Positions 12,636-58,909 are shown, numbered from the stretch's first letter. The stretch is 64,000 nt of DNA from Nitrospirota bacterium (GCA_013388455.1 JACAFF010000002.1:23115-87114); one strand, 5' to 3'. Program-made: numbers and translations. The notes: generated from the letters alone by a model not told the origin.

Positions 12636-12638
12636 CTT

Positions 12639-32912: not shown

Positions 32913-33614
32913 TTAATAGGCATAGAGCACTGACAGCCTTGACCTCTCGGTTTGGGTTGTATTGTTCACTGAATCAATTTCAATTCTGTATAAATAAGGC
33001 ATTGGAGGGGCTGAAATTACTCCTGAAGTTGATGAAGCAACTCCTCCTGTGCCAAGCTCTTCACCACTAAGACTTGAGTTGCCAATAGTTGTATCAACTA
33101 TTTTCACAGATACCTGGTAGGAGTCTGTCCCGAGACCGGAAAGGTCAAATTGCATCCTATCCCCAAGATATGGATCTGTTGACAATAACGGATCAAGCGT
33201 GCTGCTGCATGTTGCAGGCCAGTTTGAAGTAGGGTCACATAATTTGGCACATATGCATATATATTCTGAGTCGGCAGGAATAGACGAACCATCTGAAAAT
33301 TTATTGTCACCGGGGGTAACAGGATCGCCACAATCACACTGATTTGGTAAATTAACATAATATTCTCCGTCACCTTTTGGAATTACAAGATTGCCGCGAT
33401 TCGATATGAGTGCGCCTACTATTTCTGCTCCGCCGATTCCTGCTTCGCGGGCTGACTCATATCTCTTCATGAAACCCGAAGTCTTTGTGCCCTGTATGAC
33501 AAGATAGACTAATGTAGCCACAATAGCCAGTGCGATTAATGACAGCACAAGCACCATCATGAGTGCAATACCCTTTTCATTATTAATAGTAGTATTTATT
33601 TTCTGACTTCTCAT
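32913..33614 (-). CDS. pilX: PilX-like type IV minor pilin (module B)
   Basis: 233 aa. N-terminus INNEKGIALMMVLVLSLIALAIVATLVYLV and C-terminus PYLYRIEI...RLSVLYAY are shared with the module A paralogue. The middle is diverged. Confidence 0.7.
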   Translation of the reverse strand: MRSQKINTTINNEKGIALMMVLVLSLIALAIVATLVYLVIQGTKTSGFMKRYESAREAGIGGAEIVGALISNRGNLVIPKGDGEYYVNLPNQCDCGDPVTPGDNKFSDGSSIPADSEYICICAKLCDPTSNWPATCSSTLDPLLSTDPYLGDRMQFDLSGLGTDSYQVSVKIVDTTIGNSSLSGEELGTGGVASSTSGVISAPPMPYLYRIEIDSVNNTTQTERSRLSVLYAY

Positions 33615-33615
33615 T

Positions 33616-34728
33616 TTATCCTCTCAAATTGTCTGGTTTCACGACTATTGTATATATCTTCCACCGATAATTCTGGTAGTCTGCAATAGGAGTAAGGTCA
33701 AAATTTCTTCCTAAATTTAATGCCTGAGGAATCGTCTCGTCAGCCCCAACATAAATAGAATTGCTTTGATATCTATAAGTAGCATCTTTTTGTCCTTCAT
33801 GAGCAAGTATATAAACCCTTACTTCCTTTAATTGTTGCCTTATTTGATTGGCTGTGAGCCCTGATATGTCAGATGCTTCATTATCAATAACCCCGTCATC
33901 ATCTGTATCACTTCTGAAGATTATCTGCATATCAGCCACGCAATCAAAGAGGGGAATTTCTGGGTTTCTTGTACCATCTCCATGATTTATAAGCCCTTTC
34001 ATAAGGACACCTGTGGTTGGAGCACAACGGGGAGGCACGTTTGTAGTTGATATATAATAATCTGCCCTGTTGAAAGGCATCCTGAGATTAACACTGTCAA
34101 CGCCATATACTAAATAACGATCATTGGAGGTGGCTGGTGCAAAACCTGCAGGGAAATTAGCTGAATCAAATATGTCATAAAAACTGGCACCATCGTTTAC
34201 CAATACTTTTTGATTATTTTCGCCCCGGCTTGGAATTATTACAATAACCCTGTCCAGACCGCTAACCAAATCTTCAGTAGTATTGCCCCAAATATGAACA
34301 GTGCTACCACCACCACCTGTCCCTGTAACATAAGTCCATTTAACAGTCGGTTCACTTGTAGAGACACTCGTTGCCTTGATAACAAGATAATCTGAGCCAT
34401 TTGTTCCGGCATCATCGCCGCTTAATATAGCTCTTGGGGGATCGGAAGGAGAATCATTATATAATGACGCTGGAGCCGCGGCTGCTTCATTATAACTAAC
34501 AGCAGTGGGCACAACCCATGGGATGCCAAAACCTGCCTGCTCAATGTCTTTTCTTAATAGTTCAAGCCCGATTATGCCTTCTATATTACTCTCTGCTATC
34601 TTGCTCTGTTGTTTGAACTGTGTTAGTATGGGCACAAATATTCCTGTTGCAGCAGCTATGGTAAGGACAAAGACCACCATTGTGATGAGAAGTTCTACTA
34701 ATGTAAATCCTTCCTCTCTCTTAATCAT
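33616..34728 (-). CDS. pilW: PilW-like type IV minor pilin (module B)
   Basis: 370 aa. MIKREEG/FTLVELLITMVVFVLTIAAATGIF. C-terminal NYRWK..IVVKP.NLRG is shared with module A. Confidence 0.75.
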   Translation of the reverse strand: MIKREEGFTLVELLITMVVFVLTIAAATGIFVPILTQFKQQSKIAESNIEGIIGLELLRKDIEQAGFGIPWVVPTAVSYNEAAAAPASLYNDSPSDPPRAILSGDDAGTNGSDYLVIKATSVSTSEPTVKWTYVTGTGGGGSTVHIWGNTTEDLVSGLDRVIVIIPSRGENNQKVLVNDGASFYDIFDSANFPAGFAPATSNDRYLVYGVDSVNLRMPFNRADYYISTTNVPPRCAPTTGVLMKGLINHGDGTRNPEIPLFDCVADMQIIFRSDTDDDGVIDNEASDISGLTANQIRQQLKEVRVYILAHEGQKDATYRYQSNSIYVGADETIPQALNLGRNFDLTPIADYQNYRWKIYTIVVKPDNLRG

Positions 34729-35213
34729 CTTCTCCTCAATGTAGTTGCACTTTGAATAAAATCTTCACCTTTCCATCTCCATGTTACCCTGACATTTATC
34801 CGTTTTGTATTAGAAGCAGCATCATCAGTAGCACAATTATCATCTCCATCAACATCTTTACAAGTAATATTTGTACAAAAATCTTTTGTTATATTTCTAA
34901 AGGTTCTTTGAATTCTTTCTCCATTAGTGAAAGTATTTGGACAATCAACCCCTCCTGGAAGAGATGTAGTGTCTGATACTACATTAGCGAAAGGTTCATT
35001 TCTGACTTCTTCCAGCCTTGCTGCGGCAACATTAACCGCCTCTTCTCTCAAAAGGTTTCGCATGTTATGGTCTATGCCGAGAAGTGCTGCCTGCAATAAT
35101 CCAATAAAAACAAGTAGAAGCACCACAAGCGCAATCATTACCTCAACAAGGCTCACACCTTTGTCATTGTAAAGGGTTCTCATCACCTTATTTTTCTTCA
35201 CAGATTGTTCCAT
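34725..35213 (-). CDS. pilV: PilV-like type IV minor pilin (module B)
   Basis: 162 aa. ...NDKG/VSLVEVMIALVVLLLVFIGLLQAALLGIDHNMRNLLREEAVN is identical to module A over this stretch. Alternative ATG at 35183. Confidence 0.75.
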   Translation of the reverse strand: MEQSVKKNKVMRTLYNDKGVSLVEVMIALVVLLLVFIGLLQAALLGIDHNMRNLLREEAVNVAAARLEEVRNEPFANVVSDTTSLPGGVDCPNTFTNGERIQRTFRNITKDFCTNITCKDVDGDDNCATDDAASNTKRINVRVTWRWKGEDFIQSATTLRRR

Positions 35214-35796
35214 TATACTGACCCATCCTTATTCTTGAACGATCCAATAACAAACAATCATAATCCGGCTCATATGTGCTATCAATACGTGTAACTATTT
35301 GCGTGGTTACAGGTAAAATGTTGCCTCCACTTACATATGATAAAAGCCCTCTTGTGTCAATGATTAGCGTTAGAGGCAATGTCTCAGCGCTGACCATTGT
35401 GAACTGATATCCATACTCAAGCGTCTTTGCGCTATCCCATATAGTATCATCTCCGGCATCAGGGGCTATCCCGAGACTGTCATTTGTGTCTTCAGTTGCC
35501 TGATAGTTGTTGGTATCCAGAGAGACAAAATACCTGTGATTTCTTGTTACAGCCCTTGATCGTGCATCCATCAAATCAGCATATATCTGCTTTATCTGGC
35601 TTTCTACCCTGTATTTACCCATCCATCCCTGATACGAAAACCCAAAGGCAATCACAAGTATAGCGATAATACTCACAACAACCATAACCTCAGTTAATGT
35701 TACGCCGTCATCCTTTTCTATATTCGCTATGTTCGACCGCTTAATATGTTTGTCATTGCAAGAGACGAGATTGCTTCGTTTCACTCGCAATGACAA
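35188..35796 (-). CDS. fimT: FimT/FimU (GspH-domain) minor pilin (module B) with an atypically long, repeat-derived leader
   Basis: Mature part G/VTLTEVMVVVSIIAILVIAFGFSYQGWMGKYR is paralogous to module A. There is no ATG upstream of the pilin core. The only candidate starts (TTG 35796, TTG 35790, GTG 35784) lie inside the family-1 repeat. Confidence 0.6.
   Translation of the reverse strand: MSLRVKRSNLVSCNDKHIKRSNIANIEKDDGVTLTEVMVVVSIIAILVIAFGFSYQGWMGKYRVESQIKQIYADLMDARSRAVTRNHRYFVSLDTNNYQATEDTNDSLGIAPDAGDDTIWDSAKTLEYGYQFTMVSAETLPLTLIIDTRGLLSYVSGGNILPVTTQIVTRIDSTYEPDYDCLLLDRSRIRMGQYNGTICEEK
35752..35794. repeat. family-1 palindromic repeat between pilY1-B and fimT-B
   Basis: gtcattgcaagagacgagattgcttcgtttcactcgcaatgac; the termini are reverse complements. 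Confidence 0.75.
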
Positions 35797-35845
35797 TTCC
35801 TTATTGCTGGATTCGCGGATACATTTAACTATTCTTTTTATAATT

Positions 35846-44930: not shown

Positions 44931-46224
44931 ACTCATATATCCTGAATGGGGACATTTTCCTCTTTTATATAGAAGGTTCATTCCTGTTCTTGGACCCGCA
45001 ACAATCGCTGCACTAACTCCTGATGAGTGGGAAATAGAGTTCATTGATGAAAGAATAGAAACCCTTAATATTCAGAATGATGCTGACCTGGTAGGAATAT
45101 CTCTTATGACTTCTCAGGCATTGAGGGCATATGAGATTTCCAGTGCTTACAGGGCTCTCGGGATACCAGTTATTTTAGGTGGTGTCCATGTCTCACTTGC
45201 ACCCGAAGAGGCAACTGCTTATGCTGATGCAATTATTATTGGAGAGGCAGAAGAAGTATGGATTAAACTTCTTGATGATTTTAAAAAAAATCAATTAAAA
45301 AAAATATATAAATGCACCCGCCCTGTTCTTAACCCTCCTTTACCAAGATGGGATATAATATGCTCAGGGAAGGGATATCTGCCTATGAATGCACTCCAGA
45401 TATCAAGAGGCTGTCCCGTAAACTGTGAGATGTGTTCAGTTCCACAGAGTTTTGGCACCGACTTCAGGATGAGAGATATCAATTCTCTACATAAAGAACT
45501 TGACGCATCAGCAAAATATCTCTTTATTGTAAACGATAATCTTTACCTTTCGAAGAGGCGGTCTGGAGAATTCCTGAATTTACTTAAAGACAGCTCAAAA
45601 GAATGGGTAGGACTTGCACCATTAAAGATAGGTGAGGATAAATGGTTTTTAGAACTACTTATGAAAAGTCATTGTTGGGCTATGTATATTGATCTAAGTC
45701 CCTGGATTTCTGCTGGACTCAACGAGGTAATTGATGATGTTCAGGTTAAAAAGGCTGGAGAATATATCTCACGAATACGTGAATATAATATAAAAGTTAT
45801 AGCATCTTTTGTCTTCGGTTTTGATCATGATGAAAAAGATATTTTTGAGAAGACTGTATCATTCGCAAAAAAACATGAGATAGAAGAGGTAGAATTTCAT
45901 ATTCTTACACCTTATCCAATGAGTAGACTTTATGAAAGACTAAAATCGCAAGGGAGGTTGATAACAGATAAATTTTCAGAATATACTACTTCTCAAGTCG
46001 TCTTCAAACCTGCTAAAATGACACCTGATGAGTTATATGAAGGGTATATCTCGGCATGGAAAGAATTTTATGCAGATGAATACGAAGATTCATCCAACGG
46101 ACCGATGATTAGAACATTCCGATGTTTTCCAATGAAAAAAGATGATGTTATACAATTTAATGGAGAAAGATGGGTTGAGGCAGTATTTAAAAGGGAGAAT
46201 ACAAATAAATGTATAGAGAACTAA
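44920..46224 (+). CDS. B12-binding-domain radical SAM enzyme (class B) no.1
   Basis: Start re-set to the ATG at 44920 (MKLKLIYPEW). N-terminal cobalamin-type Rossmann domain (DLVGISLMTSQALRAYEISSAYRALGIPVILGGVH), CX3CX2C motif SRGCPVNCEMC, and C-terminal VVFKPAKMTPDEL tail as in DUF4070-type enzymes. Confidence 0.8.
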   Translation: MKLKLIYPEWGHFPLLYRRFIPVLGPATIAALTPDEWEIEFIDERIETLNIQNDADLVGISLMTSQALRAYEISSAYRALGIPVILGGVHVSLAPEEATAYADAIIIGEAEEVWIKLLDDFKKNQLKKIYKCTRPVLNPPLPRWDIICSGKGYLPMNALQISRGCPVNCEMCSVPQSFGTDFRMRDINSLHKELDASAKYLFIVNDNLYLSKRRSGEFLNLLKDSSKEWVGLAPLKIGEDKWFLELLMKSHCWAMYIDLSPWISAGLNEVIDDVQVKKAGEYISRIREYNIKVIASFVFGFDHDEKDIFEKTVSFAKKHEIEEVEFHILTPYPMSRLYERLKSQGRLITDKFSEYTTSQVVFKPAKMTPDELYEGYISAWKEFYADEYEDSSNGPMIRTFRCFPMKKDDVIQFNGERWVEAVFKRENTNKCIEN

Positions 46225-47561
46225 AGCCGATTATTCTTTCAAATTTACTTTATAGAATAGTTCAGATTCTATCTCTGAGTTCTCCTCAATTGCTTATCCA
46301 TTATACAAAGATAGCAGAACTCGCAACCACAAGAGATCATTATAAACGAGCGATCCGAAAGATTAGAGGCATGTGGGAAAATGGTCATCCAAGCCTGAGG
46401 GTTGCTATGAAAATCCTGAGGAATACATCACCGAATCACAAGAGAAAAATTATCAAAAACTTCATTATCAATCAGCTTCTGGTAGGCAGTACAAGGAGGA
46501 AGCTTTTTTCAGAGCAGGAAGGCGGATTTTATCCTCCAGGACTTATGGTAATTAGCCCCACGATGAAATGTAATTTGAATTGTTATGGTTGTTATGCAGG
46601 CATGTATCGCAAAGATGCGGATTTGCCTTTTGATGTGTTTGACAGGGTGCTTAATGAGGCCAAGGAAATGGGAATTTATTTCGCTGTTATATCCGGTGGT
46701 GAACCTTTTTTTAGAAAAGATATTTTTGATATCTTCGAAAAACATCATGATATGTCATTTCATGTATTCACAAATGGTAGTCTTCTTGATGACGAAAAGG
46801 TAAGGAAGATATCTGATCTCGGGAATATTCTACCTGCAATTAGTGTAGAGGGGTTTAAGGAAGAGACTGATACCCGTCGGGGTAAGGGTCACTACGAAAA
46901 AGTATTAAATGCAATGAGACTTTTAAAAGAAAATGGCGTGCTTTTCGGTTTTTCTGCAACAATGACAAAAGAAAATGCAAATACGATTGTTTCAGATGAA
47001 TTCATAGACCACTGGATTGGACATGGCTGCACTATCGGTTGGTATTTCCTTTATACACCGGTTGGAAGAGAACCTAACTGGCAAATTGTTCCAACGCCTG
47101 AACAGAGAGATATGCTTAGAGAACGGGTGGCTTATATTCGCTCTAATAAGGAGATATTAATCGGTGATTTCTGGAATGATGGCCCTGTTGTTGGTGGCTG
47201 CATTGCCGGAGGAAGAAAATATTTCCATATTAATTCCAAGGGTGATATAGAGCCATGTGTATTCTGCCATATCTCAATGCATAATATAAAAAACACAAGT
47301 CTCAGGGAAGCCATTACCTCCCCTTTATTCAAGAGAATCCGTGAACATCAGAAAAATAATACCAATCTTTTACGTCCATGTATGATCATGGATCATCCCT
47401 ATGTTTACAGAGAAATATGTCAGATTCCTGGAGTAAAATTTACACATAAAGGTGCCGAGCAAATCGTAACTGAATTTGCACCTGAAATAGATAAATATTC
47501 AAAAAGATGGGCTGAGCTTGCTGATAGGGCATGGAGTGAAAGACAGAATAGTAGTTGTTAG
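46209..47561 (+). CDS. radical SAM enzyme with long N-terminal helical extension and C-terminal auxiliary Cys cluster (possible Tes/GDGT-MAS-like)
   Basis: 450 aa. The CX3CX2C motif MKCNLNCYGCYA appears only at about residue 120. GGEPF SAM-binding motif. Later Cys set GGCIAGG, EPCVFCH and RPCM. Confidence 0.7.
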   Translation: MYRELKPIILSNLLYRIVQILSLSSPQLLIHYTKIAELATTRDHYKRAIRKIRGMWENGHPSLRVAMKILRNTSPNHKRKIIKNFIINQLLVGSTRRKLFSEQEGGFYPPGLMVISPTMKCNLNCYGCYAGMYRKDADLPFDVFDRVLNEAKEMGIYFAVISGGEPFFRKDIFDIFEKHHDMSFHVFTNGSLLDDEKVRKISDLGNILPAISVEGFKEETDTRRGKGHYEKVLNAMRLLKENGVLFGFSATMTKENANTIVSDEFIDHWIGHGCTIGWYFLYTPVGREPNWQIVPTPEQRDMLRERVAYIRSNKEILIGDFWNDGPVVGGCIAGGRKYFHINSKGDIEPCVFCHISMHNIKNTSLREAITSPLFKRIREHQKNNTNLLRPCMIMDHPYVYREICQIPGVKFTHKGAEQIVTEFAPEIDKYSKRWAELADRAWSERQNSSC

Positions 47562-48336
47562 TTTTATCTTGGTTTTTTTATTCTTTACTATCTCTGGATG
47601 TGCAAAAAAGGAGGTAATCAGACAACCAGAATCTGTTCCTCCTCTACCAGAAAAAATAACGCCTTATACACTTATTGAAAGAATAACCTCTCCTGAAATA
47701 AAGACCTTGCAGGGAAGTATAAAGCTTAATATCTTTCAGAATGGAGAATCTAAAGGAACTTTTTCCGGAGTTCTTCTTTATGAGTATCCTTACCGAATGC
47801 GCATAAAAGTCTTTGGACCTCTCTGGTTTACTCTCGCTGAACTTCTGTTCGATCATGGACTTTTTCAGGTTCTCATTCCTCTTAAAGATTCTATTTACAG
47901 CGATAACGTCCCATTTAAAAGTCTCTTTCCAGATCGTAATAAACTTGAAAAATCCATTAATTTTATAGAGGAGACAGATGAACATTACGTTCTCTATATA
48001 GTTGACTTTGAATACAATAAAACAGAAATGCTCGAACAGAGTAACAACCCCAACATAATACTCAAGGCAAAATACTCTTTTCAAAAAAGTGATCTTTTCC
48101 TCGAATCAGTTAATCTCTATAGAAAATCGAAAAAAAATTTTGGGATAAGAATTCATCGAACAAAAGAAAAAGCTCCTTCAGAAATATTGATAAATTTTAG
48201 TAAAACATTACTATCAATCACACTAAATGACATTGAGATAAATAAACCACTTAAAAAAGACATTTTCAAACCATTGGAAGCTTCTCAGAACTTTCCTCTT
48301 TCAGAATTTCTCAAAGATTTTGCTCCAAGCCTGTAA
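47518..48336 (+). CDS. lipoprotein, LolA/LolB-like (DUF4292-like) fold suspected
   Basis: 272 aa. Lipobox FFTISGC. The beta-rich pattern LQGSIKLNIFQNGESKGTFSGVLLYEYPYRMRIKVFGP resembles lipoprotein-carrier-like half barrels. Confidence 0.45.
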   Translation: MLIGHGVKDRIVVVSFILVFLFFTISGCAKKEVIRQPESVPPLPEKITPYTLIERITSPEIKTLQGSIKLNIFQNGESKGTFSGVLLYEYPYRMRIKVFGPLWFTLAELLFDHGLFQVLIPLKDSIYSDNVPFKSLFPDRNKLEKSINFIEETDEHYVLYIVDFEYNKTEMLEQSNNPNIILKAKYSFQKSDLFLESVNLYRKSKKNFGIRIHRTKEKAPSEILINFSKTLLSITLNDIEINKPLKKDIFKPLEASQNFPLSEFLKDFAPSL

Positions 48337-49577
48337 CTGAGATTAATCGCTAAATAATAAGGAATATTACTTATTATATTTGGCATTCTTTTTAAAATAG
48401 AATAAAATGAAAATGTCCTTCTGTATGCATCATCAGTCAGTATATAAAACCGATTAACATCAATATGTTTTGGCTTAAAAACGAGATGATATCTATCATA
48501 TTTAGACCAGTCAAGCGTTAGCAATCTATCTTCGCTTTTCATTTTTTCGAAAAGTTCAGTTCCAGGGAAAGGAGTAAGTTTGCAATAATTTGCACACTCG
48601 AGTCTGTTTCTGATAACAAAGTCAATTGTATCAGTAAAGACATCTTCTGTATCTTCATCAAATCCAAAAACAAAAGAGCCATGAACCCCGATACGGTAGG
48701 AATGGATTAAACGTATCATCTCTGCATAATCCTGTGGATCTCTGAGTTTTTTTACATCCTTTTTATTGCTATATCTTATACTTTCAAAACCAATAAGTAG
48801 CCCTGCACATCCGCTGTCTGAAGCATATTGTAAAAGCCTTTGGTCTTTTGCAATGTCAATGCTCGCCTGAGCAACCCATCTTTTTTTTAGTGGCATTAAA
48901 GACTTAAACAATTCCCTCGCATAGTCATGATTCCCTACTATATTATCGTCCACGAATACAAGAAACTTTTTTGGATAATCTTTGATCTCATCAACTACAT
49001 TCTTAACAGGTTTGAATCGATAATGTCTTCCAAAAAACTTTGTTGATGAGCAGAAACTACATCCGTATGGACACCCGCGGGATACCTGAAATGTTCTCGG
49101 GACAAAGTATCTATTATTATTTAGCAGTTCCCATTTTGGCTTCGGAACAATGGACATATCAGAGAAATCAGCACTTTTATAGATAGCTTTAAGTCTTCCT
49201 CTCTGAAAATCTGATATTATGTTTTGCCAAAGAGGCTCTCCCTCACCAGCTACAACTGAATCTGCATATTGCAGAGCTTCCTCTGGCATACAAGATGGGT
49301 GGATTCCTCCCATAATAATTTTCGAACCTTTCTTCCTGAAATATTCCGCTATTTCATATGCTCTTTTGGCATTTGTTGTATTCACTGAGAGAGCAACAAT
49401 GTCTGGATCAGAAGATAGAGCTATGTCCTCTACAAGTTCATCAGTAATCTTTATCTCGATTTTCTCTGGAGTAAGACTTGCAAGAATGGCTAATGACATG
49501 GGTGGAAGTGTAAAGGTTACCCTCTTTTTTCTCCATATATCTTTTTTTCTACAGGGTGCAATAAGATAAAGTCTCAA
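48285..49577 (-). CDS. B12-binding-domain radical SAM enzyme no.2
   Basis: 430 aa. DIVALSVNTTNAKRAYEIAEYFRKKGSKIIMGGIH, SRGCPYGCSFC, and HLVFKPKHI tail. Confidence 0.8.
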   Translation of the reverse strand: MRLYLIAPCRKKDIWRKKRVTFTLPPMSLAILASLTPEKIEIKITDELVEDIALSSDPDIVALSVNTTNAKRAYEIAEYFRKKGSKIIMGGIHPSCMPEEALQYADSVVAGEGEPLWQNIISDFQRGRLKAIYKSADFSDMSIVPKPKWELLNNNRYFVPRTFQVSRGCPYGCSFCSSTKFFGRHYRFKPVKNVVDEIKDYPKKFLVFVDDNIVGNHDYARELFKSLMPLKKRWVAQASIDIAKDQRLLQYASDSGCAGLLIGFESIRYSNKKDVKKLRDPQDYAEMIRLIHSYRIGVHGSFVFGFDEDTEDVFTDTIDFVIRNRLECANYCKLTPFPGTELFEKMKSEDRLLTLDWSKYDRYHLVFKPKHIDVNRFYILTDDAYRRTFSFYSILKRMPNIISNIPYYLAINLSYRLGAKSLRNSERGKF

Positions 49578-50835: not shown

Positions 50836-51522
50836 TTATGACAAACACTTTGTCTTCAAAAAACATTTCAGAAAACATACGCTTATCCGGTAGAAATCCC
50901 TTACAGGTCTGAAATGGCTCGAATAGTCATCCGCATATACTGTTGTAATAGTAGCTGTTCCAACATGAAATCCAGCATAACGTGACTTTAACAAAATTTC
51001 TGTCTCCATTTCAAATCCTGCTGTTTCAATATGGATACTTTTTATAACATCTGTTGAATAAATTCTAAATCCTGATTGGGTGTCTCTTATTTTAGTTCCT
51101 ATAGCTCTGGAGATAAAAATTTCTCCAATCCTGTTTGCCAGTGCCCTATGTATTGGCATTATATTACGATTTATAAGTCTTTCTCCAATAATAATATCAC
51201 AATCTCCTTGTTCAAAAACGGTCTTAAGGATGGGAATCTCAGATGGAAGATGCTGTCCATCAGCATCCATTGTTATGACTGCATCAAAATTATTCTTCAT
51301 GATTTCAGAGAATCCTGTCAGCAGTGCTTTACCTTTGCCCATATTTTTCTGATGTACTATAACCTTTGCTCCTGCTTCTCTGGCTAAAAAAGATGTTCTG
51401 TCTCCTGAACCGTCATCCACCACAAAGATATCCTGAACATATTGAAATGCATCACGGATTATATGGGAGATATTTTTTTCTTCATTGTATGCAGGGATAA
51501 GAAGGCTATATCTCATTTCCAT
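50836..51522 (-). CDS. family 2 glycosyltransferase (polyprenyl-phosphate sugar transferase-like)
   Basis: 228 aa. LIPAYNEEKNI, VVDDGSGD and DADGQH (DXD) motifs. Confidence 0.8.
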   Translation of the reverse strand: MEMRYSLLIPAYNEEKNISHIIRDAFQYVQDIFVVDDGSGDRTSFLAREAGAKVIVHQKNMGKGKALLTGFSEIMKNNFDAVITMDADGQHLPSEIPILKTVFEQGDCDIIIGERLINRNIMPIHRALANRIGEIFISRAIGTKIRDTQSGFRIYSTDVIKSIHIETAGFEMETEILLKSRYAGFHVGTATITTVYADDYSSHFRPVRDFYRISVCFLKCFLKTKCLS

Positions 51523-51536: not shown

Positions 51537-52043
51537 TTAGAAAAATCTTTGAACAATTTGATCATTCTTAGAATGAATAATCTCTCCTGTTTCTCTGCCC
51601 TGATAAAATGCCAGCAGATTATTTTTTGAAACAGCACTTTCAAATCTCTCACTCACAGCAATTTCCCAATGCTCTATGGGAAGATCAAGAAAATTGCTGA
51701 GCCTTCCAAGACAGAACATATTCAAACTCCTATTATATTTGGTTATTTCTTTATCTGTTGGCAAAATGACTGTTGTCATCTCAGAAAAAATAAGACCAAC
51801 TTCATTGGAGAGAACTACTGCTATATCTGCAATTTCAGGTATAACTTTTGGGTCGTAAACCTTTTTGCCTGCTACGAGTGTTGATAGAACTTTTCCTCCC
51901 CTGCGTGCAATTCCTTTCATATCTGATTTTTTCACATCATAACCAGAAAGGAAAAAAGTTCGCGCAGTAATTGATGAAGCAGTGAGGACTCCCTGTCCTC
52001 CTTTACCTATAAATACTATTGATGTATTTCTTTTTGATTGCAT
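51537..52043 (-). CDS. iorB: indolepyruvate:ferredoxin oxidoreductase beta subunit
   Basis: IVFIGKGGQGVLTAS N-terminus typical of the 2-oxoacid:Fd oxidoreductase gamma-like fold, immediately after iorA. I prefer the ATG at 52043 over the track start at 52091. Confidence 0.65.
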   Translation of the reverse strand: MQSKRNTSIVFIGKGGQGVLTASSITARTFFLSGYDVKKSDMKGIARRGGKVLSTLVAGKKVYDPKVIPEIADIAVVLSNEVGLIFSEMTTVILPTDKEITKYNRSLNMFCLGRLSNFLDLPIEHWEIAVSERFESAVSKNNLLAFYQGRETGEIIHSKNDQIVQRFF

Positions 52044-53724
52044 TTTGTTCACATACCTGTATGCACAATCCGCACCCGTTACATCTGTCATTTATTTTAT
52101 AAGAATTTCCATCTCTTATAATTGCTGAACAACCAAGTGATAGGCAGCTATTACACAAATTGCATTCCTGCTCCTCTATATAACAGAATCCGTCCTTTTG
52201 TTTATGTACAGCACATTCACCATCTATAATGATGGCTGAAATACCACTTGTTAGTAAACCATCCATTATACCGGTCTTGATATTACGCAGGTCATATGCT
52301 CCAATTCTCTTCACAGATTCAACTCCACAACTATATAAAATATCTTCAATTAATAATCTCTTTTTATCAGGTCTCAAACCTTTACCTGTCCCAATATGGG
52401 GCTGTCCGCCGGTCATTGAGGTTGTATGATTATCAAGGATAATAATGAGTATATCTGCTTTTTGATACATAGCATTAAGAACAGCCGGGATACCCGAGTG
52501 GAAAAAGGTAGAATCACCTATTACACCAATTGCCTTTTCGCCCTGTGAGATACTATATCCAGCTGCCTGAGATATTCCGCTCCCCATGCAGAGTGTTGTG
52601 TCAATTACATTCGGATATGTGTGTACAGCCAATGTGTAACAACCGATATCACCTCCAATAAAAATTGATTTATTGTGCAATTCTGAAAAGACCCCAATAT
52701 ACGGGCAACCCGGACATAAAAAAGCATGGTTGTCTCTGCATAGCTCTCCATATTTAATATAGTTGCCCTGAAAAGCCTCTTTGATTAAAAATGAATTTAA
52801 CTCCCCTGTTTCTGGTAAAAGTCCATTTGCTTTACCCTTCACCTCTATCCCTCTTGCTTTTAGCATATCTTCGATAAAGGAACTCGATTCTTCAACAATA
52901 AATAATTCAATGCATGATTCAGAAAATTTCTTGATTTCTTGAATATTAAGTGGATATACAATACCAATTTTAAATACAGAAACATCTGGAAAAGTTTCTT
53001 TTACATATTGGTATGAAATACCTGATGTTATAATTCCTTTAATACTTCCCTTATTTTCTGCACTATTTAAACCGATTGAAGGAATTTCCTGTCTGAAAAT
53101 TTCCATCCTCCTCTGAAGAGATAGTCTCTGTTTGCTGGTATATGGTGGGATTAAAACATTTTTTTTCGGATTCGAAGTATATTTCCGGTAAACCTCTCTT
53201 CTTTCTCCCTCAAAATTAACAATACTGCTTGTATGTGATATCGCTCTTGTTAATCTTAAAAGAATAGGGAGATCAAAGCGTTCACTTATATCAAACGCCA
53301 TTTTAGTAAATATATATGCTTCTTGTGAATCTGACGGCTCAAGGACAGGAATATTAGCGATCAAACCGTAGAGTCTCGAATCCTGTTCATTCTGAGAGCT
53401 CCACATTCCGGGATCGTCAGAAACAGCAATTACAAGACCACCATTTACCCCTGTATATGCAAGATTTATTAGTGGATCAGAAGCAACATTTAAACCAACA
53501 TGTTTCATTGCAACAAGAGCACGTTTTCCTGAAAGAGATACCCCTGATGCAAATTCAAGGGCTGTCTTTTCATTTACAGACCACTCTGCATAAACTTCAG
53601 GATAGCGGGAGATTGTTTCGATAATCTCTGTAGCAGGGGTTCCCGGATAGCCGGTAGCTACAAAAACACCAGCCTCATATGCTCCTAAAGCAACTGCTTC
53701 ATTCCCTGTAAGTAGAGATTTCAT
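52003..53724 (-). CDS. iorA: indolepyruvate:ferredoxin oxidoreductase alpha subunit
   Basis: About 573 aa from the ATG at 53724 (the track start 53730 is TTG). TPP motifs GDIGCYTL and GDSTFFHSG. Two ferredoxin Cys clusters CNLCNSCLSLGC and CNGCGLCIQVC. Confidence 0.8.
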   Translation of the reverse strand: MKSLLTGNEAVALGAYEAGVFVATGYPGTPATEIIETISRYPEVYAEWSVNEKTALEFASGVSLSGKRALVAMKHVGLNVASDPLINLAYTGVNGGLVIAVSDDPGMWSSQNEQDSRLYGLIANIPVLEPSDSQEAYIFTKMAFDISERFDLPILLRLTRAISHTSSIVNFEGERREVYRKYTSNPKKNVLIPPYTSKQRLSLQRRMEIFRQEIPSIGLNSAENKGSIKGIITSGISYQYVKETFPDVSVFKIGIVYPLNIQEIKKFSESCIELFIVEESSSFIEDMLKARGIEVKGKANGLLPETGELNSFLIKEAFQGNYIKYGELCRDNHAFLCPGCPYIGVFSELHNKSIFIGGDIGCYTLAVHTYPNVIDTTLCMGSGISQAAGYSISQGEKAIGVIGDSTFFHSGIPAVLNAMYQKADILIIILDNHTTSMTGGQPHIGTGKGLRPDKKRLLIEDILYSCGVESVKRIGAYDLRNIKTGIMDGLLTSGISAIIIDGECAVHKQKDGFCYIEEQECNLCNSCLSLGCSAIIRDGNSYKINDRCNGCGLCIQVCEQNAIKKKYINSIYR

Positions 53725-53757
53725 GCTCAAATTGGATTTGTTTTTTATTATGTGTGC

Positions 53758-54360
53758 TTATAAAATCTTCGCATCTGACAGAACAATCAAAGGACTATAC
53801 CCTGACTGCCCGTAATCGAACTTTCTCAATATGCCTTTGAATCTTATGTGATCTCCACTGGATATTGATTCAATGTTCTGCTTATCATCACCTATTAAAA
53901 CTATATTAAAACCTTTTCTTGATTTTAAACCTGGATTGTCAACGAGAATCTTAAAACCCCTTCTTCCCTTGTCAACTTCATAGACTCTCCCCCCCCATAT
54001 TACGGGTTTGCCCTCGACTTTTTGCCAGTAATCCTTTATTTCATATTTAGAATGATAATCTAAACTAAGATTGTTAGCTACTGTTTTAAAATCCATCCCC
54101 ATCTGCAACTGTGGTTTTGGTGTAAATTCGATGGGTGGTTTGGAAGCTATTGGGGTTTTAGGAGGAGCCTCAGGCTTTTTTGGAGGAACTGGTACTTCTT
54201 CCCGTAGTTTTTCAGGTGCCTTCTGAACCTCCTTTACTCCTTTATCCCCATGTTCAATAGTAATCTTTATCTTTTCTTCAGAAGATTCCTTTCCGGTGCA
54301 ATTGATAAGAAATAGCATAGGCATCATGCTAATAACTAAAAATTTTTTAATAATTCTCAT
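53758..54360 (-). CDS. lipoprotein with Pro/Lys-rich linker and C-terminal domain paralogous to the 50298-50726 product
   Basis: From the ATG at 54360: MRIIKKFLVISMMPMLFLINC (lipobox-like), a linker PVPPKKPEAPPKTPIASKPP, then the shared ~95-aa domain. Confidence 0.5.
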   Translation of the reverse strand: MRIIKKFLVISMMPMLFLINCTGKESSEEKIKITIEHGDKGVKEVQKAPEKLREEVPVPPKKPEAPPKTPIASKPPIEFTPKPQLQMGMDFKTVANNLSLDYHSKYEIKDYWQKVEGKPVIWGGRVYEVDKGRRGFKILVDNPGLKSRKGFNIVLIGDDKQNIESISSGDHIRFKGILRKFDYGQSGYSPLIVLSDAKIL

Positions 54361-55726
54361 GGAAATCCTCCGGTAATTTTGCATTAATAACTGAATAAAG
54401 CTGAACTGGCTCTGAAATTCCTTTAACCTGAACAGGACTCAGCTTTATGACCTCCACATAGTCTTTAACAGCTTCATATGTCTTTTCACTGATATGAAGT
54501 TGTCCTTTTTCTGTAGACGACTCTATCCTCTGAGCAATATTCACACCCGAACCTATAACTGTGTATTCAAGCCTTTCAGGTGAACCTACATTCCCTGCGA
54601 CAGCCTCGTCTGTATTGATTCCTATCCCAATATTAACCTGCTGTTCACCCTTTTTGAGTCTTTCTTTATTCATCTCTGCCATTTTCTTCTGCATCTCAAG
54701 GCCTGTCAAGATAGCCCGCAATTCATGGTATTTCTGGTCAAGGGGTGCATTATATGTAACCATAATCGCATCCCCTATAAATTTATTCAATACACCGCCA
54801 TACTGGAATACCACATCTATCATCATACTGAAATATTGATTTAGGATTTCAATTACTTTTTCAGGAGGCATGGTTTCAGCCAATGGGGTAAAACCTCTGA
54901 TATCTGCAAAAAGCACTGTAACAATCCTCTTTTCCCCTTTGAGCTTAAGATAATCCTTCTCTTTGAGTATCTTATCTGCAACCTGTTTAGAGACATATTT
55001 TGAAAAAGTGTCCTTGATAAATTCCCGCTCATTAAGTCCATCGACCATTTTATTGAATGCTCTCCCCATAGAGCCTACTTCATCCGATGTGTTTATATTC
55101 ACCTTATGAGTTAGGTCACCAGCTTCAACATGGCTCATGGCATCGGCTATTTTACTCAGTGGCTTTGTTATTCTATTTGATATAAAAAAAGCCCCAATAA
55201 TGCCCAACAAAATAAAGCCCAACCCAATACCAGCCCACGTAACAAGAGAGAGAAAAACCTTTTTCTTGAGAGCCGATAGACTGAATATTATTTTTATATT
55301 CCCCCTAAGTCCCTCATCGCTTTCTATATTTACAGAAACAGATTTAAATTTCTTATGTTTTAAATCCTTATCCCTTAATCTCGAAAGTGCGGTGATCTTA
55401 TCGCCACTGAATTCAATCCATTTAGTGTTAAGGTCTCCTGCTATAATATTCCCCTTACTCCCTGAAATAACTATGCATGCAATCCTTTCATCCAATGACA
55501 TCATAACATCTATAAACCTTTCAAGTTCTGGCCGTTCTATCCTTTCCGAATGTTCAATATCGCTAACCCATTTTAATGCTACTACTTTTGCCATCATTTT
55601 CGCATATGATGACATCTCTGCATATGAATTCTGGATTTCTTTTCTTGCACTATGTATGGTTATGGCAGAGATAAGTATAATCTGAATCAATACAACAAAA
55701 ATAGCTATCTTGTGTTTTAATTTCAA
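54347..55726 (-). CDS. membrane-bound class III adenylate/guanylate cyclase with periplasmic sensor region and HAMP
   Basis: 459 aa. Two TM segments, a HAMP domain (ITKPLSKIADAMSHVEAGDL) and a cyclase core VTVLFADIRGFT...KFIGDAIMV...GIGINTDEAVAGNVG. Confidence 0.8.
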   Translation of the reverse strand: MKLKHKIAIFVVLIQIILISAITIHSARKEIQNSYAEMSSYAKMMAKVVALKWVSDIEHSERIERPELERFIDVMMSLDERIACIVISGSKGNIIAGDLNTKWIEFSGDKITALSRLRDKDLKHKKFKSVSVNIESDEGLRGNIKIIFSLSALKKKVFLSLVTWAGIGLGFILLGIIGAFFISNRITKPLSKIADAMSHVEAGDLTHKVNINTSDEVGSMGRAFNKMVDGLNEREFIKDTFSKYVSKQVADKILKEKDYLKLKGEKRIVTVLFADIRGFTPLAETMPPEKVIEILNQYFSMMIDVVFQYGGVLNKFIGDAIMVTYNAPLDQKYHELRAILTGLEMQKKMAEMNKERLKKGEQQVNIGIGINTDEAVAGNVGSPERLEYTVIGSGVNIAQRIESSTEKGQLHISEKTYEAVKDYVEVIKLSPVQVKGISEPVQLYSVINAKLPEDFHENY

Positions 55727-55920: not shown

Positions 55921-58260
55921 TTAAGGACGAATCTTACTTGATTTATACAGCGGTAAGAATAGAAAAACAAGTATGAGGTTTAGAGCCGTCCCTATCGAAA
56001 CAGCGAATCCGATATCAGAAAGTCCTCTATAGGATGAGAAATAAAGACTCCCGAAACCGCAGATAGTAGTGAGTGCAGAAATGATAATGGCAGTGCCTGT
56101 TTGTGAAATAATCTTCTGAATATCGTTTTCTTTTTTCATATGATGAACAAAGTGTATGGCATAATCGGTTCCTATTCCGAAGAGCATCACTGCTGTTAGT
56201 GCACTCATGATGTGGATATGACGTCCTGTCGCTGTGAGAATAGCTAATGTAAAAATTATCCCGATAAGAATCGGTAATTGAATCAATATTGTAATCTTTA
56301 TACTTCTGAAACTTACAAGAAGTATGATGTTCACAAGTAAAAATCCGATAAGGGTAATTTTTAATGCATCTGTTTTTAAAAGATCAGATAGTTCTTTTTT
56401 AATAGATTCTTTGTCTATGACGGTTACTCCTGAGATATCAGGAATATCTGTAGCATTTTTATTATGAATAATGACCAGGTAATGAAATCTATTGCCATCC
56501 TTCCATAAAAATCTGTTCTTAAAAAATTCATTATACATTATATCTTCATATGTAATCGGAGTATTTACTGACAATATCTCATTTAAAGTATCTGAATATT
56601 GCATGATGAACTTATTTGAAAATCCAACCTGCTCAGCCTTCATGGCGAAATTTTTAATAACTTGATCTTTATTGATATTCCTGAGGAGGTTGATAATCAT
56701 TAACTGTTTTTCAAGAGGTGGGACAAAAGTTGTTTGAGATATAACATCCCTTATATTAGAGGCATAAAGTTGTTTTTCAATTGTATCCGCCTTTATTATT
56801 GCGTCATCAGGATTATCTCCATCGCCCATTAAAAATACCTTTTTATCATCCTTGATGATTTCACCAAGAACTGTTCGTGCAGGATTTTTTTCAGAACCAA
56901 TCTCCCTTAAATCAATATCAAATTTTATATCTTTGGTTATCCAGAGTGAGAAAGCTATCAAAATAAAAAAAAGTATCGGTAAAACCCTTTTAACATTATT
57001 ATTTAACAATATTCTACCGAAAGAAGAAAAATGGTAAGGCAACGTCACATTTGTTTTTAATCTGATTAAACCTGCAACTACTCCAAAGAGGATCAATGCA
57101 CAGATGATTATACCTGAAGACGTGAGGATGCCGAGTTCCTGAATTCCTTTAAATCCGGATAATGCCATTGGAAAGAACGTTGCCCATGTAGTAAGCGCTC
57201 CTGTCCATATGCCGGTTGAAGTTTGCTCTATAGATTTCTCGATGTTTTTTTGATAAAGATGCTTTATATATAGGATAATGGATAGATCGACTCCAAGACC
57301 GATGAGCATGCCTCCGAATCCAACAGAGGCCTCTGTCAGATTGCCCATTAATAAGCTGATTAATCCGAGTGTGAAAATAACAGATATGGCAACAGGTAAA
57401 AATGCATAGAACATTATTCTCAAATCTCTCCTGAAAAAGATAAACATAACAATGCTGACAAGCACGAGGGAGATTATAATATTTCTCTGCATCTCGCTTT
57501 TCATCTGAGTTGCTTCATAATATGTTATAGCGTGGCTGCCTGTTATCATGTAACTTATATCTTCTTTCTCGTCAAGGTTCTTTTTAAGAACAGCTTCTAT
57601 ACCGGTTATAAGATTATGATCAAAGGACAGATCTCTCGGTTCTCCGTTTGCTGTTGCTATAATGACCAGGGCATTCTTTTCTTTTAAAAGATAAAATCCA
57701 GTGTTTGTGTCAAAGAGACTTTCTGTTTCAGGAAAAGGCCTGATAAAATCACTAAGCCCAAGGGGGTCAATTCTTCCTATCTCCCCACCTCCGGGCATCA
57801 TCATCCTGAGTTTCGTTCTTCTTATAGCTTCCTCAATACCAGATGGCGATATCCGATAAAAGAAATCATCGATAAATTCATCAGATAAATATAGAGGGAG
57901 CCTTTTCTTGAGAAGTGTGATGTAATAATTTTTTAACTCATCCGTTAGCCGATATTTAACATCTGTAATCTCTTTAAGCTCTTTTAGTTCTTTGCTTATC
58001 TTTTCTGCTTTCTCTAATATTATTGGCATGTGACCTCTGAGAATTATGTAACAATTCTTCTCACCACCGAGATGATTCAATGCTTCAAGATAAGCGTGTG
58101 TCTTGACAGCCTCTTTGGGGATATACTGAAGAAAATTCTGCCCGAAACCTGTTTGATAAATAATGTAAATTGAAAAAACTGACAAAAGAAGGATAATCGA
58201 AAGGACGATGAGCGGTCTTTTTTTAAAAAATCTTATAAGAAAGAGAGAAAATTTAAGCAT
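55921..58260 (-). CDS. MMPL/RND-superfamily lipid exporter
   Basis: 779 aa. Two 6-TM bundles separated by large soluble loops, with duplicated sterol-sensing-like TM blocks (GLGVDLSIILY and GIGTDYAIHFV). Confidence 0.7.
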   Translation of the reverse strand: MLKFSLFLIRFFKKRPLIVLSIILLLSVFSIYIIYQTGFGQNFLQYIPKEAVKTHAYLEALNHLGGEKNCYIILRGHMPIILEKAEKISKELKELKEITDVKYRLTDELKNYYITLLKKRLPLYLSDEFIDDFFYRISPSGIEEAIRRTKLRMMMPGGGEIGRIDPLGLSDFIRPFPETESLFDTNTGFYLLKEKNALVIIATANGEPRDLSFDHNLITGIEAVLKKNLDEKEDISYMITGSHAITYYEATQMKSEMQRNIIISLVLVSIVMFIFFRRDLRIMFYAFLPVAISVIFTLGLISLLMGNLTEASVGFGGMLIGLGVDLSIILYIKHLYQKNIEKSIEQTSTGIWTGALTTWATFFPMALSGFKGIQELGILTSSGIIICALILFGVVAGLIRLKTNVTLPYHFSSFGRILLNNNVKRVLPILFFILIAFSLWITKDIKFDIDLREIGSEKNPARTVLGEIIKDDKKVFLMGDGDNPDDAIIKADTIEKQLYASNIRDVISQTTFVPPLEKQLMIINLLRNINKDQVIKNFAMKAEQVGFSNKFIMQYSDTLNEILSVNTPITYEDIMYNEFFKNRFLWKDGNRFHYLVIIHNKNATDIPDISGVTVIDKESIKKELSDLLKTDALKITLIGFLLVNIILLVSFRSIKITILIQLPILIGIIFTLAILTATGRHIHIMSALTAVMLFGIGTDYAIHFVHHMKKENDIQKIISQTGTAIIISALTTICGFGSLYFSSYRGLSDIGFAVSIGTALNLILVFLFLPLYKSSKIRP

Positions 58261-58639
58261 TGATGCTCAATAAAATATATCCATTTAAAACCCTTTTATT
58301 TTCAACTGTCGCAGATACGGAAAAATCTAATATATTACCGAATCTTTTATTAAGGGTGCTTTCAAGGATTAAAACATCTCCACAAATTACTACACTATGA
58401 AAAGCAAACTCTTTAATTCCAACAAGCATACCCTGTCCTTCTATTCCTGAAGCAACGCCGCTTAGCTGTGCAAGTGCCTCTATCAAAAGAACTTGTGGAA
58501 AAATTAAGCCTTTTGAAAATAATTCCAGCGTAATTTTTTTTATACCAGTTGCCTTACCATTTTCAACCGAGATTATATCATCCAGCATCAAGAAAGGATA
58601 TCTGTGAGGAAGGATTTTTATCGGGTTCAAAGTATTCAC
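58253..58639 (-). CDS. FabA/FabZ-like hot-dog protein lacking the canonical catalytic His
   Basis: 128 aa. ILPHRYPFLMLDDI and LLIEALAQ blocks as in FabZ, but the GHFP histidine motif is replaced by SKGLIFP. Confidence 0.6.
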   Translation of the reverse strand: MNTLNPIKILPHRYPFLMLDDIISVENGKATGIKKITLELFSKGLIFPQVLLIEALAQLSGVASGIEGQGMLVGIKEFAFHSVVICGDVLILESTLNKRFGNILDFSVSATVENKRVLNGYILLSINA

Positions 58640-58648: not shown

Positions 58649-58909
58649 TCAAGTTTTTTGTTTCATGATATAATCTGCTAAGGCATTCACTGATCTGAAT
58701 GCCTCTTTACCAACATCTTCATCAGGAATTCTTATGCCATAATTTTTTTCAAGAGCAACTACAAGCTCAAGTGCATCAATGGAGTCAAGCCCAAGACCTT
58801 CCCCGAAGAGTGGACCGTCATCCTCTATTTCATCAGGATTGATATCTTCTAATTTCAATCTTTTAATAATTAATTTTTTTAATTCTATCAAAAGTTCATT
58901 CTTATTCAC
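58649..58909 (-). CDS. acyl carrier protein (cluster-dedicated)
   Basis: 86 aa. Phosphopantetheine attachment motif GLGLDSIDALELV. Confidence 0.85.
   Translation of the reverse strand: MNKNELLIELKKLIIKRLKLEDINPDEIEDDGPLFGEGLGLDSIDALELVVALEKNYGIRIPDEDVGKEAFRSVNALADYIMKQKT

Follow-up and report, generated by a model that had tools for sequence, protein, structure and literature searches.

A probable Mss-type radical SAM enzyme and its lipid-related gene context in a Nitrospirota genome

What reaction does the radical SAM (S-adenosylmethionine) enzyme encoded at 46209..47561 catalyze, and to which enzyme family does it belong? The question arises from a 64,000-nucleotide stretch of the genome of a Nitrospirota bacterium (GCA_013388455.1 JACAFF010000002.1:23115-87114; hereafter the window, with positions counted from its first letter), in which this gene, the target of the present analysis, lies among genes of lipid metabolism. 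A previous reading made from the sequence alone (hereafter the sequence-only reading) had taken the enzyme for a bacterial relative of the archaeal tetraether synthases Tes and GDGT-MAS. Our analysis points to a different family. The target is probably an Mss-family radical SAM enzyme that would join two fatty-acyl tails into membrane-spanning lipids, an assignment that we favor because its sequence signature and taxonomic spread match those of Mss and because its gene context is consistently lipid-related.

Mss was described as a radical SAM enzyme of Thermotoga maritima (Tmari_0825/WP_004080829.1) and Thermoanaerobacter ethanolicus (WP_129545148.1) (Sahonero-Canavesi et al., Sci Adv 2022, PMC13159169). 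It joins the distal carbons of two fatty-acyl tails, yielding membrane-spanning lipids of the diabolic or iso-diabolic acid type, and when expressed alone in anaerobic Escherichia coli it suffices to couple two tails into diabolic-type diacids (PMC13159169). Its authors consider it "remotely related" to Tes (PMC13159169) and count as homologues those proteins that are >= 30% identical to WP_129545148.1 or WP_004080829.1 with E <= 1e-50.

The target gene and the parts of its protein are the following:

46209..47561, plus strand: target gene, a 450-residue radical SAM enzyme with one Twitch/SPASM-like auxiliary-cluster domain (open reading frame (ORF) call, Pfam, AlphaFold2 model and family signature)
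46209..46532, plus strand: N-terminal domain, residues 1-108, a strongly basic, Cys-free five-helix bundle (AlphaFold2 model and charge; no Pfam match)
46569..46592, plus strand: radical SAM cluster motif C121-N-L-N-C125-Y-G-C128, fitting CNxxCxGC (conservation in 456 family members)
46695..46709, plus strand: GGEPF SAM-binding motif, residues 163-167 (G163, G164 and E165 conserved in >=95%)
47169..47399, plus strand: auxiliary-cluster domain of truncated SPASM/Twitch-like type, residues 321-397 (Pfam SPASM and per-column conservation)
47199..47201, 47256..47258 and 47379..47381, plus strand: conserved auxiliary cysteines C331, C350 and C391, respectively (conservation)

A Shine-Dalgarno-like AGGGAG stands about 11 nt 5' of the ATG. 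Within the protein, Pfam recognizes a Radical_SAM domain at residues 115-260 (6e-24) and a SPASM domain at residues 331-391 (1.3e-7), and cysteines occur at positions 121, 125, 128, 274, 331, 350, 353, 391, 404 and 450. The radical SAM motif reads MKC121NLNC125YGC128YA and is preceded by a helical lead of about 110 residues. An AlphaFold2 model built from 45 homologues (mean predicted local distance difference test score, pLDDT, 90.3; predicted template-modelling score, pTM, 0.90) places five helices in residues 2-102, ahead of the first barrel strand (2-23, 26-39, 43-57, 62-72 and 75-102). The reading frame, the CX3CX2C motif behind its helical lead and GGEPF are all present exactly as the sequence-only reading had described them, and its three C-terminal blocks are found as GGC331IAGG, EPC350VFC353H and RPC391M.

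The target belongs to a large family, with one 450-residue homologue at 98% identity and more than 7000 further ones. When a library clustered at 50% identity was searched exhaustively, 659 clusters scored E <= 1e-30, most of them matching from end to end, N-terminal lead included. We aligned 456 full-length members, whose identity to the target is 29-100%, and found six of the cysteines practically invariant (C121, C125, C128, C331, C350 and C391). The three cysteines of the radical SAM motif are conserved in >=99% of members, N122 in 97.6% and G127 in 97%, and CNxxCxGC is carried by 467 of the 508 proteins collected. The sequence-only reading had counted four C-terminal cysteines towards an auxiliary site; three of these hold across the family, C331, C350 and C391 being conserved in >=99.5% of members, but C353 is found in only 27%. 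C274 is kept in 78%, and M392, directly after C391, in 40%. The residues conserved in >=95% of members are, along the sequence, C121, N122, C125, G127 and C128; G163, G164 and E165; G205, N206, S212, E214, G215, T220, R223, R224, G225 and G227; S249, N256, G273, W278, P284, Q299 and R300; D320, F321, G330, C331, H340, G345, P349, C350 and F352; and finally P390, C391 and D395. The consensus of the auxiliary domain is DFWNDG..VGGC..GGR.Y.HIN..GDVEPCVF ... L.PC...D.P., and within GDVEPCVF the V, E, P and C columns are conserved at 79%, 93%, 99% and 100%.

Two features of this anatomy bear on function. The segment C331-x13-G345-x4-C350 corresponds to the first half of the SPASM motif, while the CX2CX5CX3C half is absent; since only three auxiliary cysteines are conserved and the second half is missing, a single Twitch-type auxiliary [4Fe-4S] cluster is expected in the family, bound by three cysteines and predicted to have a fourth iron that is open or labile. 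Across the 456 members, no cysteine of the N-terminal domain is conserved (the target has none at all before C121). The domain is strongly basic, its net charge being +14 in the target and +11 as the median of 453 members, compared with -6 for the rest of the protein. This five-helix domain may well serve in docking to the membrane or to lipids.

The conserved residues can be set against six blocks described in words for WP_129545148.1 and WP_004080829.1 (bioRxiv 10.1101/2022.04.21.487849 SI). Blocks I to III comprise CNxxCxGC, a GGE(P) region and some 25 residues that include N, S and, within a Gly-rich stretch, R; block IV consists of G, S, N and E, then W, then P, Q and R; block V has D beside F, then Y, H and N among glycines, and VEPC followed by P, C and F; block VI has prolines and C (bioRxiv 10.1101/2022.04.21.487849 SI). 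The residues conserved in >=95% of our family follow these blocks in the same order and nearly one to one, from the radical SAM motif and GGE(P) through the VEPC block to the final P-C block. For block I, C121-N-L-N-C-Y-G-C128 fits CNxxCxGC down to the glycine before the third cysteine. A glycine in that position, directly before the third cluster cysteine, is unusual among radical SAM enzymes.

The taxonomic spread of the family provides a second line of evidence. Members occur in Nitrospirota, where the closest genome is a Thermodesulfovibrio metagenome-assembled genome (MAG; 80% amino-acid identity), and in Desulfobacterota, Geobacter, Syntrophia, Zixibacteria, Omnitrophota, Planctomycetota, Atribacterota, Spirochaetota, Actinomycetota (Humimicrobiaceae and relatives), Dehalococcoidales, Clostridia, Caldisericia, Dictyoglomaceae, Bacteroidales and Patescibacteria, as well as in the Nanoarchaeota, Pacearchaeota and Helarchaeota of the DPANN and Asgard archaea. 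Published Mss homologues come from Nitrospirae, Zixibacteria, Omnitrophica, Planctomycetes, Atribacterota, Caldiserica, Dictyoglomi, Chloroflexi, Spirochaetes, gamma- and delta-Proteobacteria, and DPANN and Asgard archaea (PMC13159169), to which a Black Sea survey adds Humimicrobiia, Desulfobacterota, Omnitrophota and Patescibacteria. The two distributions are the same odd list. Like Mss, the family occurs in anaerobes and is associated in some genomes with ether-lipid genes of the PlsA/Ger type. The target is 46% identical over 442 residues to a Dictyoglomaceae protein (E 1e-141), and Dictyoglomi are verified producers of diabolic acid that carry mss (PMC13159169). Homologues were also found on plasmids by tblastn, in Escherichia albertii pEA5_1 (2254..3633 of locus L085) and Klebsiella pneumoniae pFF1023_1 (11956..13257 of locus L086). 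Both are full-length, 35% identical to the target (E 1e-91) and isolated on IncF plasmids, where they adjoin IS66 elements and replication genes; none of the plasmid hits bore the name Mss. Of 5,426 complete E. coli genomes, none contains a match to the E. albertii gene.

Several considerations weigh against an assignment to Mss. We infer membership from the published text signature and from taxonomy, and substrate and chemistry are deduced in turn; the comparison runs through a verbal description of the blocks, through taxonomic coincidence and through transitivity rather than through direct alignment to a verified Mss. Part of the signature is generic, as G-D-V-x-P-C and GGE are common in many SPASM enzymes. 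The dedicated cluster of fatty-acid-synthase (FAS)-like and B12-binding radical SAM genes found here, in Geobacter and in Desulfobacterota implies that the substrate may be something other than a standard phospholipid and that the reaction could differ. Finally, the window holds no Ger/PlsA gene, and in the literature searched membrane-spanning lipids are undocumented for Thermodesulfovibrionia, the group that this genome resembles, with nothing on Thermodesulfovibrio lipids that speaks for or against them.

Could the target nonetheless be a bacterial orthologue of the archaeal Tes/GDGT-MAS enzymes? The resemblance that suggested it is real in outline. These are lipid-modifying radical SAM enzymes, as the target presumably is; the radical SAM motif lies some 110-120 residues from the N terminus in both, nearly at the same distance (residues 114-220 of the target match 111-225 of the 7tol chain); the three-cysteine C-terminal site recalls the [4Fe-4S]C cluster of GDGT-MAS; and the gene context is lipid-related. 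GDGT-MAS, however, has a rubredoxin domain (C9X2C12X20C33X2H36), an N-terminal [4Fe-4S]N cluster bound by C73, C77, C80 and a histidine, and a C-terminal cluster held by three cysteines and a labile Met439, with a conserved Tyr459 (PMC9433317). Tes carries two CxxxCxxC motifs, and its homologues have been called at BLASTP E < 1e-50 (PMC8941075), with identity above 20-30% to MA_1486 and other Tes sequences (Zeng et al. 2022). In our family a second CxxxCxxC is found in none of the 456 members and the N-terminal domain lacks conserved cysteines, from which it follows that the rubredoxin and [4Fe-4S]N domains are absent, their place being taken by the Cys-free basic helical bundle. At its C-terminal end the family has three conserved cysteines (C331, C350 and C391) and, in 40% of members, M392, but no alignment reaches the C-terminal domain of 7tol from which their equivalence to the ligands of [4Fe-4S]C could be assigned.

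Among the checks that the sequence-only reading had put forward, the comparisons with the sequence of MJ0619 and with the GDGT-MAS crystal structure come out against its proposal. With phmmer against the PDB, the target matches 7tol (MJ0619) at E 4.8e-4 over residues 114-220 alone, behind SkfB, BlsE, SuiB, PqqE and viperin-like enzymes, and the family profile finds it at rank 16 (E 3.2e-4, 22.7 bits, positions 117-207 only), so that similarity spans just 90-110 residues of the core for single sequence and profile alike and falls far short of the 1e-50 used for Tes. A Foldseek search with the AlphaFold2 model puts 7tol at rank 34 (TM-scores of 0.40 by query and 0.36 by target, root-mean-square deviation 16.4), after SkfB, SuiB, anSME, CteB, BlsE, viperins and PqqE. 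A match limited to the core, with better hits to other radical SAM subfamilies, is the very outcome that the sequence-only reading had named as counting against its proposal, and we therefore reject membership in Tes/GDGT-MAS, to which we attach hardly any probability. The idea of carbon-carbon coupling between lipid tails fares better than the family to which it had been tied: on the Mss-like signature, the taxonomy and the lipid context, that function is probably right, by way of an enzyme of Mss type. The authors of Mss report that models of the enzyme superpose on Tes (PMC13274423). For annotation, the lesson is that a radical SAM motif some 120 residues from the N terminus together with a C-terminal set of cysteines is insufficient to call Tes, and that the CNxxCxGC/VEPC signature and a Cys-free basic N-terminal domain set Mss-type enzymes apart.

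The same searches raise a second alternative, in which the target would be a SPASM/Twitch maturase of peptides made by the ribosome and modified after translation (RiPPs) or another SPASM enzyme acting on something other than lipids, for instance a haem enzyme like AhbD or NirJ, or an enzyme that matures sulfatases. SkfB, SuiB, anSME, CteB and PqqE are indeed its best matches in the PDB by sequence and fold, and NirJ2, AhbD and sactipeptide maturases its best matches among NCBIfam models. Yet no curated NCBIfam model claims the target: NirJ2 and AhbD, the best, reach 85-86 bits against cutoffs of 500, the scores at large range from 46 to 86 bits against family cutoffs of 265-650, and it is mainly the core that is covered. 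The conservation of only three auxiliary cysteines speaks against such enzymes as well, and the recurrent neighbors across phyla, in the 85 loci surveyed below, are lipid-related rather than peptidase, transporter or haem genes. For a RiPP maturase in particular, the operon genes overlap so that no precursor gene fits between them, and the spacer of 230 nt upstream of the operon holds only tiny low-complexity ORFs and no credible small gene. The N-terminal domain is all-helical in the AlphaFold2 model, while a RiPP recognition element (RRE) is a winged helix with beta strands. The RiPP reading is thus unlikely on context and architecture, there being neither room for a precursor in this operon nor an RRE-like fold, and we regard non-lipid SPASM functions as a whole as very improbable.

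The immediate neighborhood of the gene is made up as follows:

42740..43780, minus strand: LpxK (lipid A 4'-kinase), divergent from the operon (Pfam LpxK 6.6e-78; TIGR00682 207 bits, cutoff 92)
44010..44930, plus strand: lipid acyltransferase of the LpxL/HtrB family (Lip_A_acyltrans), first gene of the operon (Pfam PF03279 3.4e-22)
44866..46224, plus strand: B12-binding radical SAM enzyme, overlapping the acyltransferase and target genes (Pfam B12-binding 4.3e-12, DUF4070, Radical_SAM)
47518..48336, plus strand: lipoprotein with signal peptide and lipobox-like ISGC, weakly LolA/LolB-like, last gene of the operon (LolB1_Flavo E 0.0026, below cutoff)

The acyltransferase, the B12-binding radical SAM enzyme, the target and the lipoprotein genes overlap end to end on the plus strand. 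They form one operon, divergent from lpxK, in which the target is translationally coupled to its neighbors; scans for promoters and terminators around the operon gave nothing above shuffled expectation. The B12-binding radical SAM neighbor and the upstream lipid acyltransferase noted in the sequence-only reading are both in place. Its LolA/B-like lipoprotein exists as a lipoprotein gene, but its likeness to LolA or LolB is only indirectly supported: beyond the LolB1_Flavo score, two of four homologues match Pfam LolA_like (best E 1.7e-5) and the counterpart in locus L001 gives a faint PF17131 hit. A profile of the four homologues finds no match in the PDB, and a single-sequence AlphaFold2 model is unusable (pLDDT 38).

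The context of the family at large was surveyed by calling and clustering ORFs in 85 loci that carry a member. The most recurrent neighbors are B12-binding radical SAM enzymes (39 loci, within 3.5 kb in 31), family 2 glycosyltransferases (GT2; 34) and Lip_A_acyltrans acyltransferases (27, always co-oriented), followed by polysaccharide deacetylases (25), ketoreductases (KR; 20), ATP-grasp enzymes (15), MMPL exporters (13) and PlsA/Ger-like proteins (9). PlsA/Ger-type enzymes turn ester into ether bonds and are the partners of Mss in the pathway proposed for brGDGTs, the branched glycerol dialkyl glycerol tetraethers. Four arrangements recur. Nitrospirota loci (the window and L005-L007) have the order acyltransferase, B12-binding enzyme, family gene and lipoprotein. 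Geobacter loci run from deacetylase, GT2 and family gene through Lip_A_acyltrans acyltransferase, acyl carrier protein (ACP), B12-binding enzyme, FabD-like protein, thioesterase and a further B12-binding enzyme to a pair of ketosynthases (KS). In Desulfobacterota and Syntrophia, an ATP-grasp gene and a deacetylase or GT2 gene precede the family gene, and an MMPL or PlsA-like gene follows it. In locus L019 the genes directly 3' of the family gene encode DUF2229+HGD-D, DUF2229 and BcrAD_BadFG proteins, a set that corresponds to the PlsA/Ger type of enzyme.

In the fourth arrangement the family gene stands by itself. In Actinomycetota MAGs (L053, L059, L063, L071, L073 and L082) it is inserted alone between thrS and infC of the conserved thrS-infC-rplT-pheS-pheT operon, a housekeeping setting and not one of secondary metabolism, and stand-alone genes also occur in Clostridia and on the enterobacterial plasmids. 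Such copies imply that every cell can offer the substrate, as is the case for Mss, and they agree with an enzyme whose substrates are ordinary membrane lipids, like Mss expressed alone in E. coli. Family genes inside clusters, on the other hand, imply that some lineages feed the enzyme a specialized lipid.

Two further observations were made in these loci. In three Desulfobacterota MAGs (L009, at 11272..12930, L010 and L011), a 552-residue protein is encoded between the family gene and an MMPL exporter; it fuses an N-terminal CsgG/LpoB-like lipoprotein domain to NHL beta-propeller repeats. The family gene is present twice in one Planctomycetota and one Actinomycetota locus (L058 and L066), its copies lying in tandem or separated by a few genes, which suggests lineage-specific duplication, possibly with copies that differ in substrate or position specificity.

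In the window, the operon forms part of a larger lipid gene cluster that we delimit from 42.7 kb to the window end:

48285..49577, minus strand: second B12-binding radical SAM enzyme, convergent with the operon (Pfam Radical_SAM 1.8e-14, B12-binding 9.4e-14)
50836..51522, minus strand: GT2 glycosyltransferase of the polyprenyl-phosphate-sugar-synthase type, AglJ/PpgS/ArnC-like (Pfam Glycos_transf_2 5.6e-23; NCBIfam AglJ 2.4e-32 and PpgS 1.2e-27, both below cutoff)
51537..53730, minus strand: alpha and beta subunits of an enzyme like indolepyruvate/2-oxoacid:ferredoxin oxidoreductase (IOR) (TIGR03336 IOR_alpha 573 bits, cutoff 650.9; Pfam POR, TPP_enzyme_C)
55921..58260, minus strand: MMPL/HpnN-like lipid exporter of the resistance-nodulation-division (RND) type (Pfam MMPL 1.5e-23; HpnN 2.3e-50 and HAE3 4.2e-49, below cutoff)
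58253..58639, minus strand: FabZ-like dehydratase (Pfam FabA)
58649..58909, minus strand: ACP (NF006617 83.6 bits, cutoff 70)
58909..59655, minus strand: KR/FabG-like protein (Pfam adh_short)
59645..60478, minus strand: FabD-like acyltransferase (Pfam Acyl_transf_1)
60454..61806, minus strand: B12-binding radical SAM enzyme of TIGR04072, "lipid biosynthesis B12-binding/radical SAM protein" (383.5 bits, cutoff 360)
61803..63149, minus strand: B12-binding radical SAM enzyme (Pfam)
63573..63812, minus strand: tail of a fifth B12-binding radical SAM enzyme, cut by an ORF boundary or a frameshift

With the one in the operon, five B12-binding radical SAM genes lie within 20 kb, and the cluster also contains two small genes for lipoproteins or secreted proteins and, near its end, a DUF2062 gene. 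The IOR-like pair might supply acyl-CoA primers, perhaps branched or aromatic ones; a similar pair directly follows the family gene in an unrelated genome (L002, 9554..10833). Between the IOR-like genes and the MMPL exporter, 54347..55726 (minus strand) encodes a membrane-anchored protein of 459 residues in which a HAMP-like segment and a C-terminal half like class III adenylate/guanylate cyclases were recognized by eye. Outside the cluster, the window contains two tandem operons for type IV pilus minor pilins (23751..41029, minus strand), each ending in a giant Cys-rich PilY1-like protein (25928..30712, 1594 residues; 35846..41029, 1727 residues). A gene for an Ig-domain protein (31021..31752) and one for an IS200-like Y1 transposase (31955..32605) lie between the two operons, and the arrangement resembles a module that was duplicated, its copies flanking a transposase.

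The "ladderane-type" clusters that TIGR04072 marks in anammox bacteria, Desulfotalea and Geobacter lack a demonstrated product (Rattray et al. 2009, PMC2649909). The window shares with these clusters the TIGR04072 enzyme, ACP, FabZ-like protein, KR and GT2, and related loci add polysaccharide deacetylase, amino-oxidase/phytoene-desaturase-like, SRPBCC and methyltransferase genes. This surrounding is where the target departs from what is published on Mss: an operon of LpxL-like acyltransferase, B12-binding radical SAM enzyme and LolA-like lipoprotein inside a ladderane-type cluster with FAS-like, B12-binding radical SAM and MMPL genes is a setting for which we found no description in the literature searched on Mss.

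It is also where the strongest rival explanation takes hold. The target might be a tailoring enzyme of the surrounding cluster, ladderane-type or aryl-polyene-like, acting on an ACP-bound or cluster-specific acyl chain to cyclize it, cross-link it at mid-chain or desaturate it, in place of coupling two ordinary lipid tails. In its favor, the window cluster has a dedicated set of ACP, FabZ-like, KR and FabD-like proteins, an MMPL exporter and a TIGR04072 enzyme that passes its cutoff; loci of the Geobacter type add KS/chain-length-factor-like genes, a 4HBT thioesterase and ACP beside the family gene, and comparable clusters in Kuenenia and Desulfotalea carry uncharacterized radical SAM enzymes. 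A precedent for mid-chain cross-linking exists in Gms, the synthase of glycerol monoalkyl glycerol tetraethers (GMGTs; Garcia et al. 2024, PMC11214058; Li et al. 2024), a radical SAM enzyme of the SPASM/Twitch group that resembles the target in type of architecture: an N-terminal extension of about 100 residues, proposed to form a hydrophobic lipid pocket, precedes a core nearest to AhbD/NirJ, and the gene is often clustered with that of a B12-binding radical SAM enzyme (Gmm). The differences are nonetheless substantial. Gms is marked by close homology to AhbD (E 7e-79, 36% identity), two full SPASM auxiliary clusters and a COG4001 domain at its N terminus. On the first two points the target differs: it scores 84.8 bits with the AhbD model TIGR04545 (cutoff 500), has three conserved auxiliary cysteines and lacks CX2CX5CX3C, and its pattern of conserved residues fits Mss and not Gms. 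Moreover, the many members that stand alone or in housekeeping operons devoid of FAS-like genes imply a universally available substrate. We consider a tailoring function unlikely on these grounds, though it is the likeliest of the alternatives.

If the target is an Mss-type enzyme, a mechanism can be sketched, based on analogy with the activity of Mss and the mechanism of GDGT-MAS and on the anatomy of the protein. The basic five-helix domain would dock the enzyme on the anionic membrane surface and help to form a channel for the lipid. The cluster of the CNxxCxGC motif would then cleave SAM, and the resulting 5'-deoxyadenosyl radical would take a hydrogen atom from one acyl chain at its omega or omega-1 carbon. 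The substrate radical might be parked on the single auxiliary [4Fe-4S] cluster (C331, C350 and C391, with one open or labile site), until a second SAM activates the second tail and the two carbons couple. In GDGT-MAS, the radical is parked through a C-S bond to the C-terminal cluster with its three cysteines and labile fourth ligand (PMC9433317), and the target probably shares this logic of two SAM molecules and a radical stored on a cluster. As for its partners, the adjacent B12-binding radical SAM enzyme is probably a C-methylase, the LpxL-like enzyme presumably an acyl-ACP-dependent acyltransferase, and the LolA-like and MMPL proteins a putative export route. Operon coupling, with ACP, FabZ, KR and FabD genes, B12-binding radical SAM enzymes and an MMPL exporter alongside, makes it likely that the product is a specialized long-chain lipid, possibly one that carries extra methyl groups and is exported.

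Mss was published in 2022 and homologues have already been reported in Nitrospirae; the gene is not new in kind. More interesting than the gene itself, if modest as a novelty, is the conserved operon and cluster context that ties Mss-type enzymes to B12-binding radical SAM enzymes, an LpxL-like acyltransferase and TIGR04072 clusters. A wider interpretation, which we offer as speculative and on balance doubtful, is that LpxL-like acyltransferase, B12-binding radical SAM enzyme and Mss-like enzyme may constitute a dedicated pathway for methyl-branched, tail-coupled lipids in anaerobic bacteria, either membrane-spanning or targeted to the outer membrane. In the window this conserved trio is accompanied by the LolA-like lipoprotein, the MMPL exporter, its own set of ACP, FabZ, KR and FabD genes and four further B12-binding radical SAM enzymes. 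Under such a scheme, the neighboring B12-binding enzymes would be the C-methylases that introduce the extra mid-chain methyls of brGDGT-type or "overly branched" tetraether lipids, and the TIGR04072 clusters found outside anammox bacteria would encode the same pathway.

The result connects Mss with the puzzling lipid clusters of "ladderane type" that are known from anammox bacteria, Desulfotalea and Geobacter. It also touches on a practical matter, for brGDGTs are widely used as palaeothermometers and pH proxies, while their anoxic bacterial producers and the enzymes that couple and methylate them are poorly constrained. If the assignment is true, the Nitrospirota Mss-type enzyme lengthens the list of candidate producers, and its operon and cluster partners (the LpxL-like acyltransferase, the B12-binding radical SAM enzymes, the LolA-like lipoprotein and the MMPL exporter) become testable candidates for the missing steps of acyl transfer, methylation and export.

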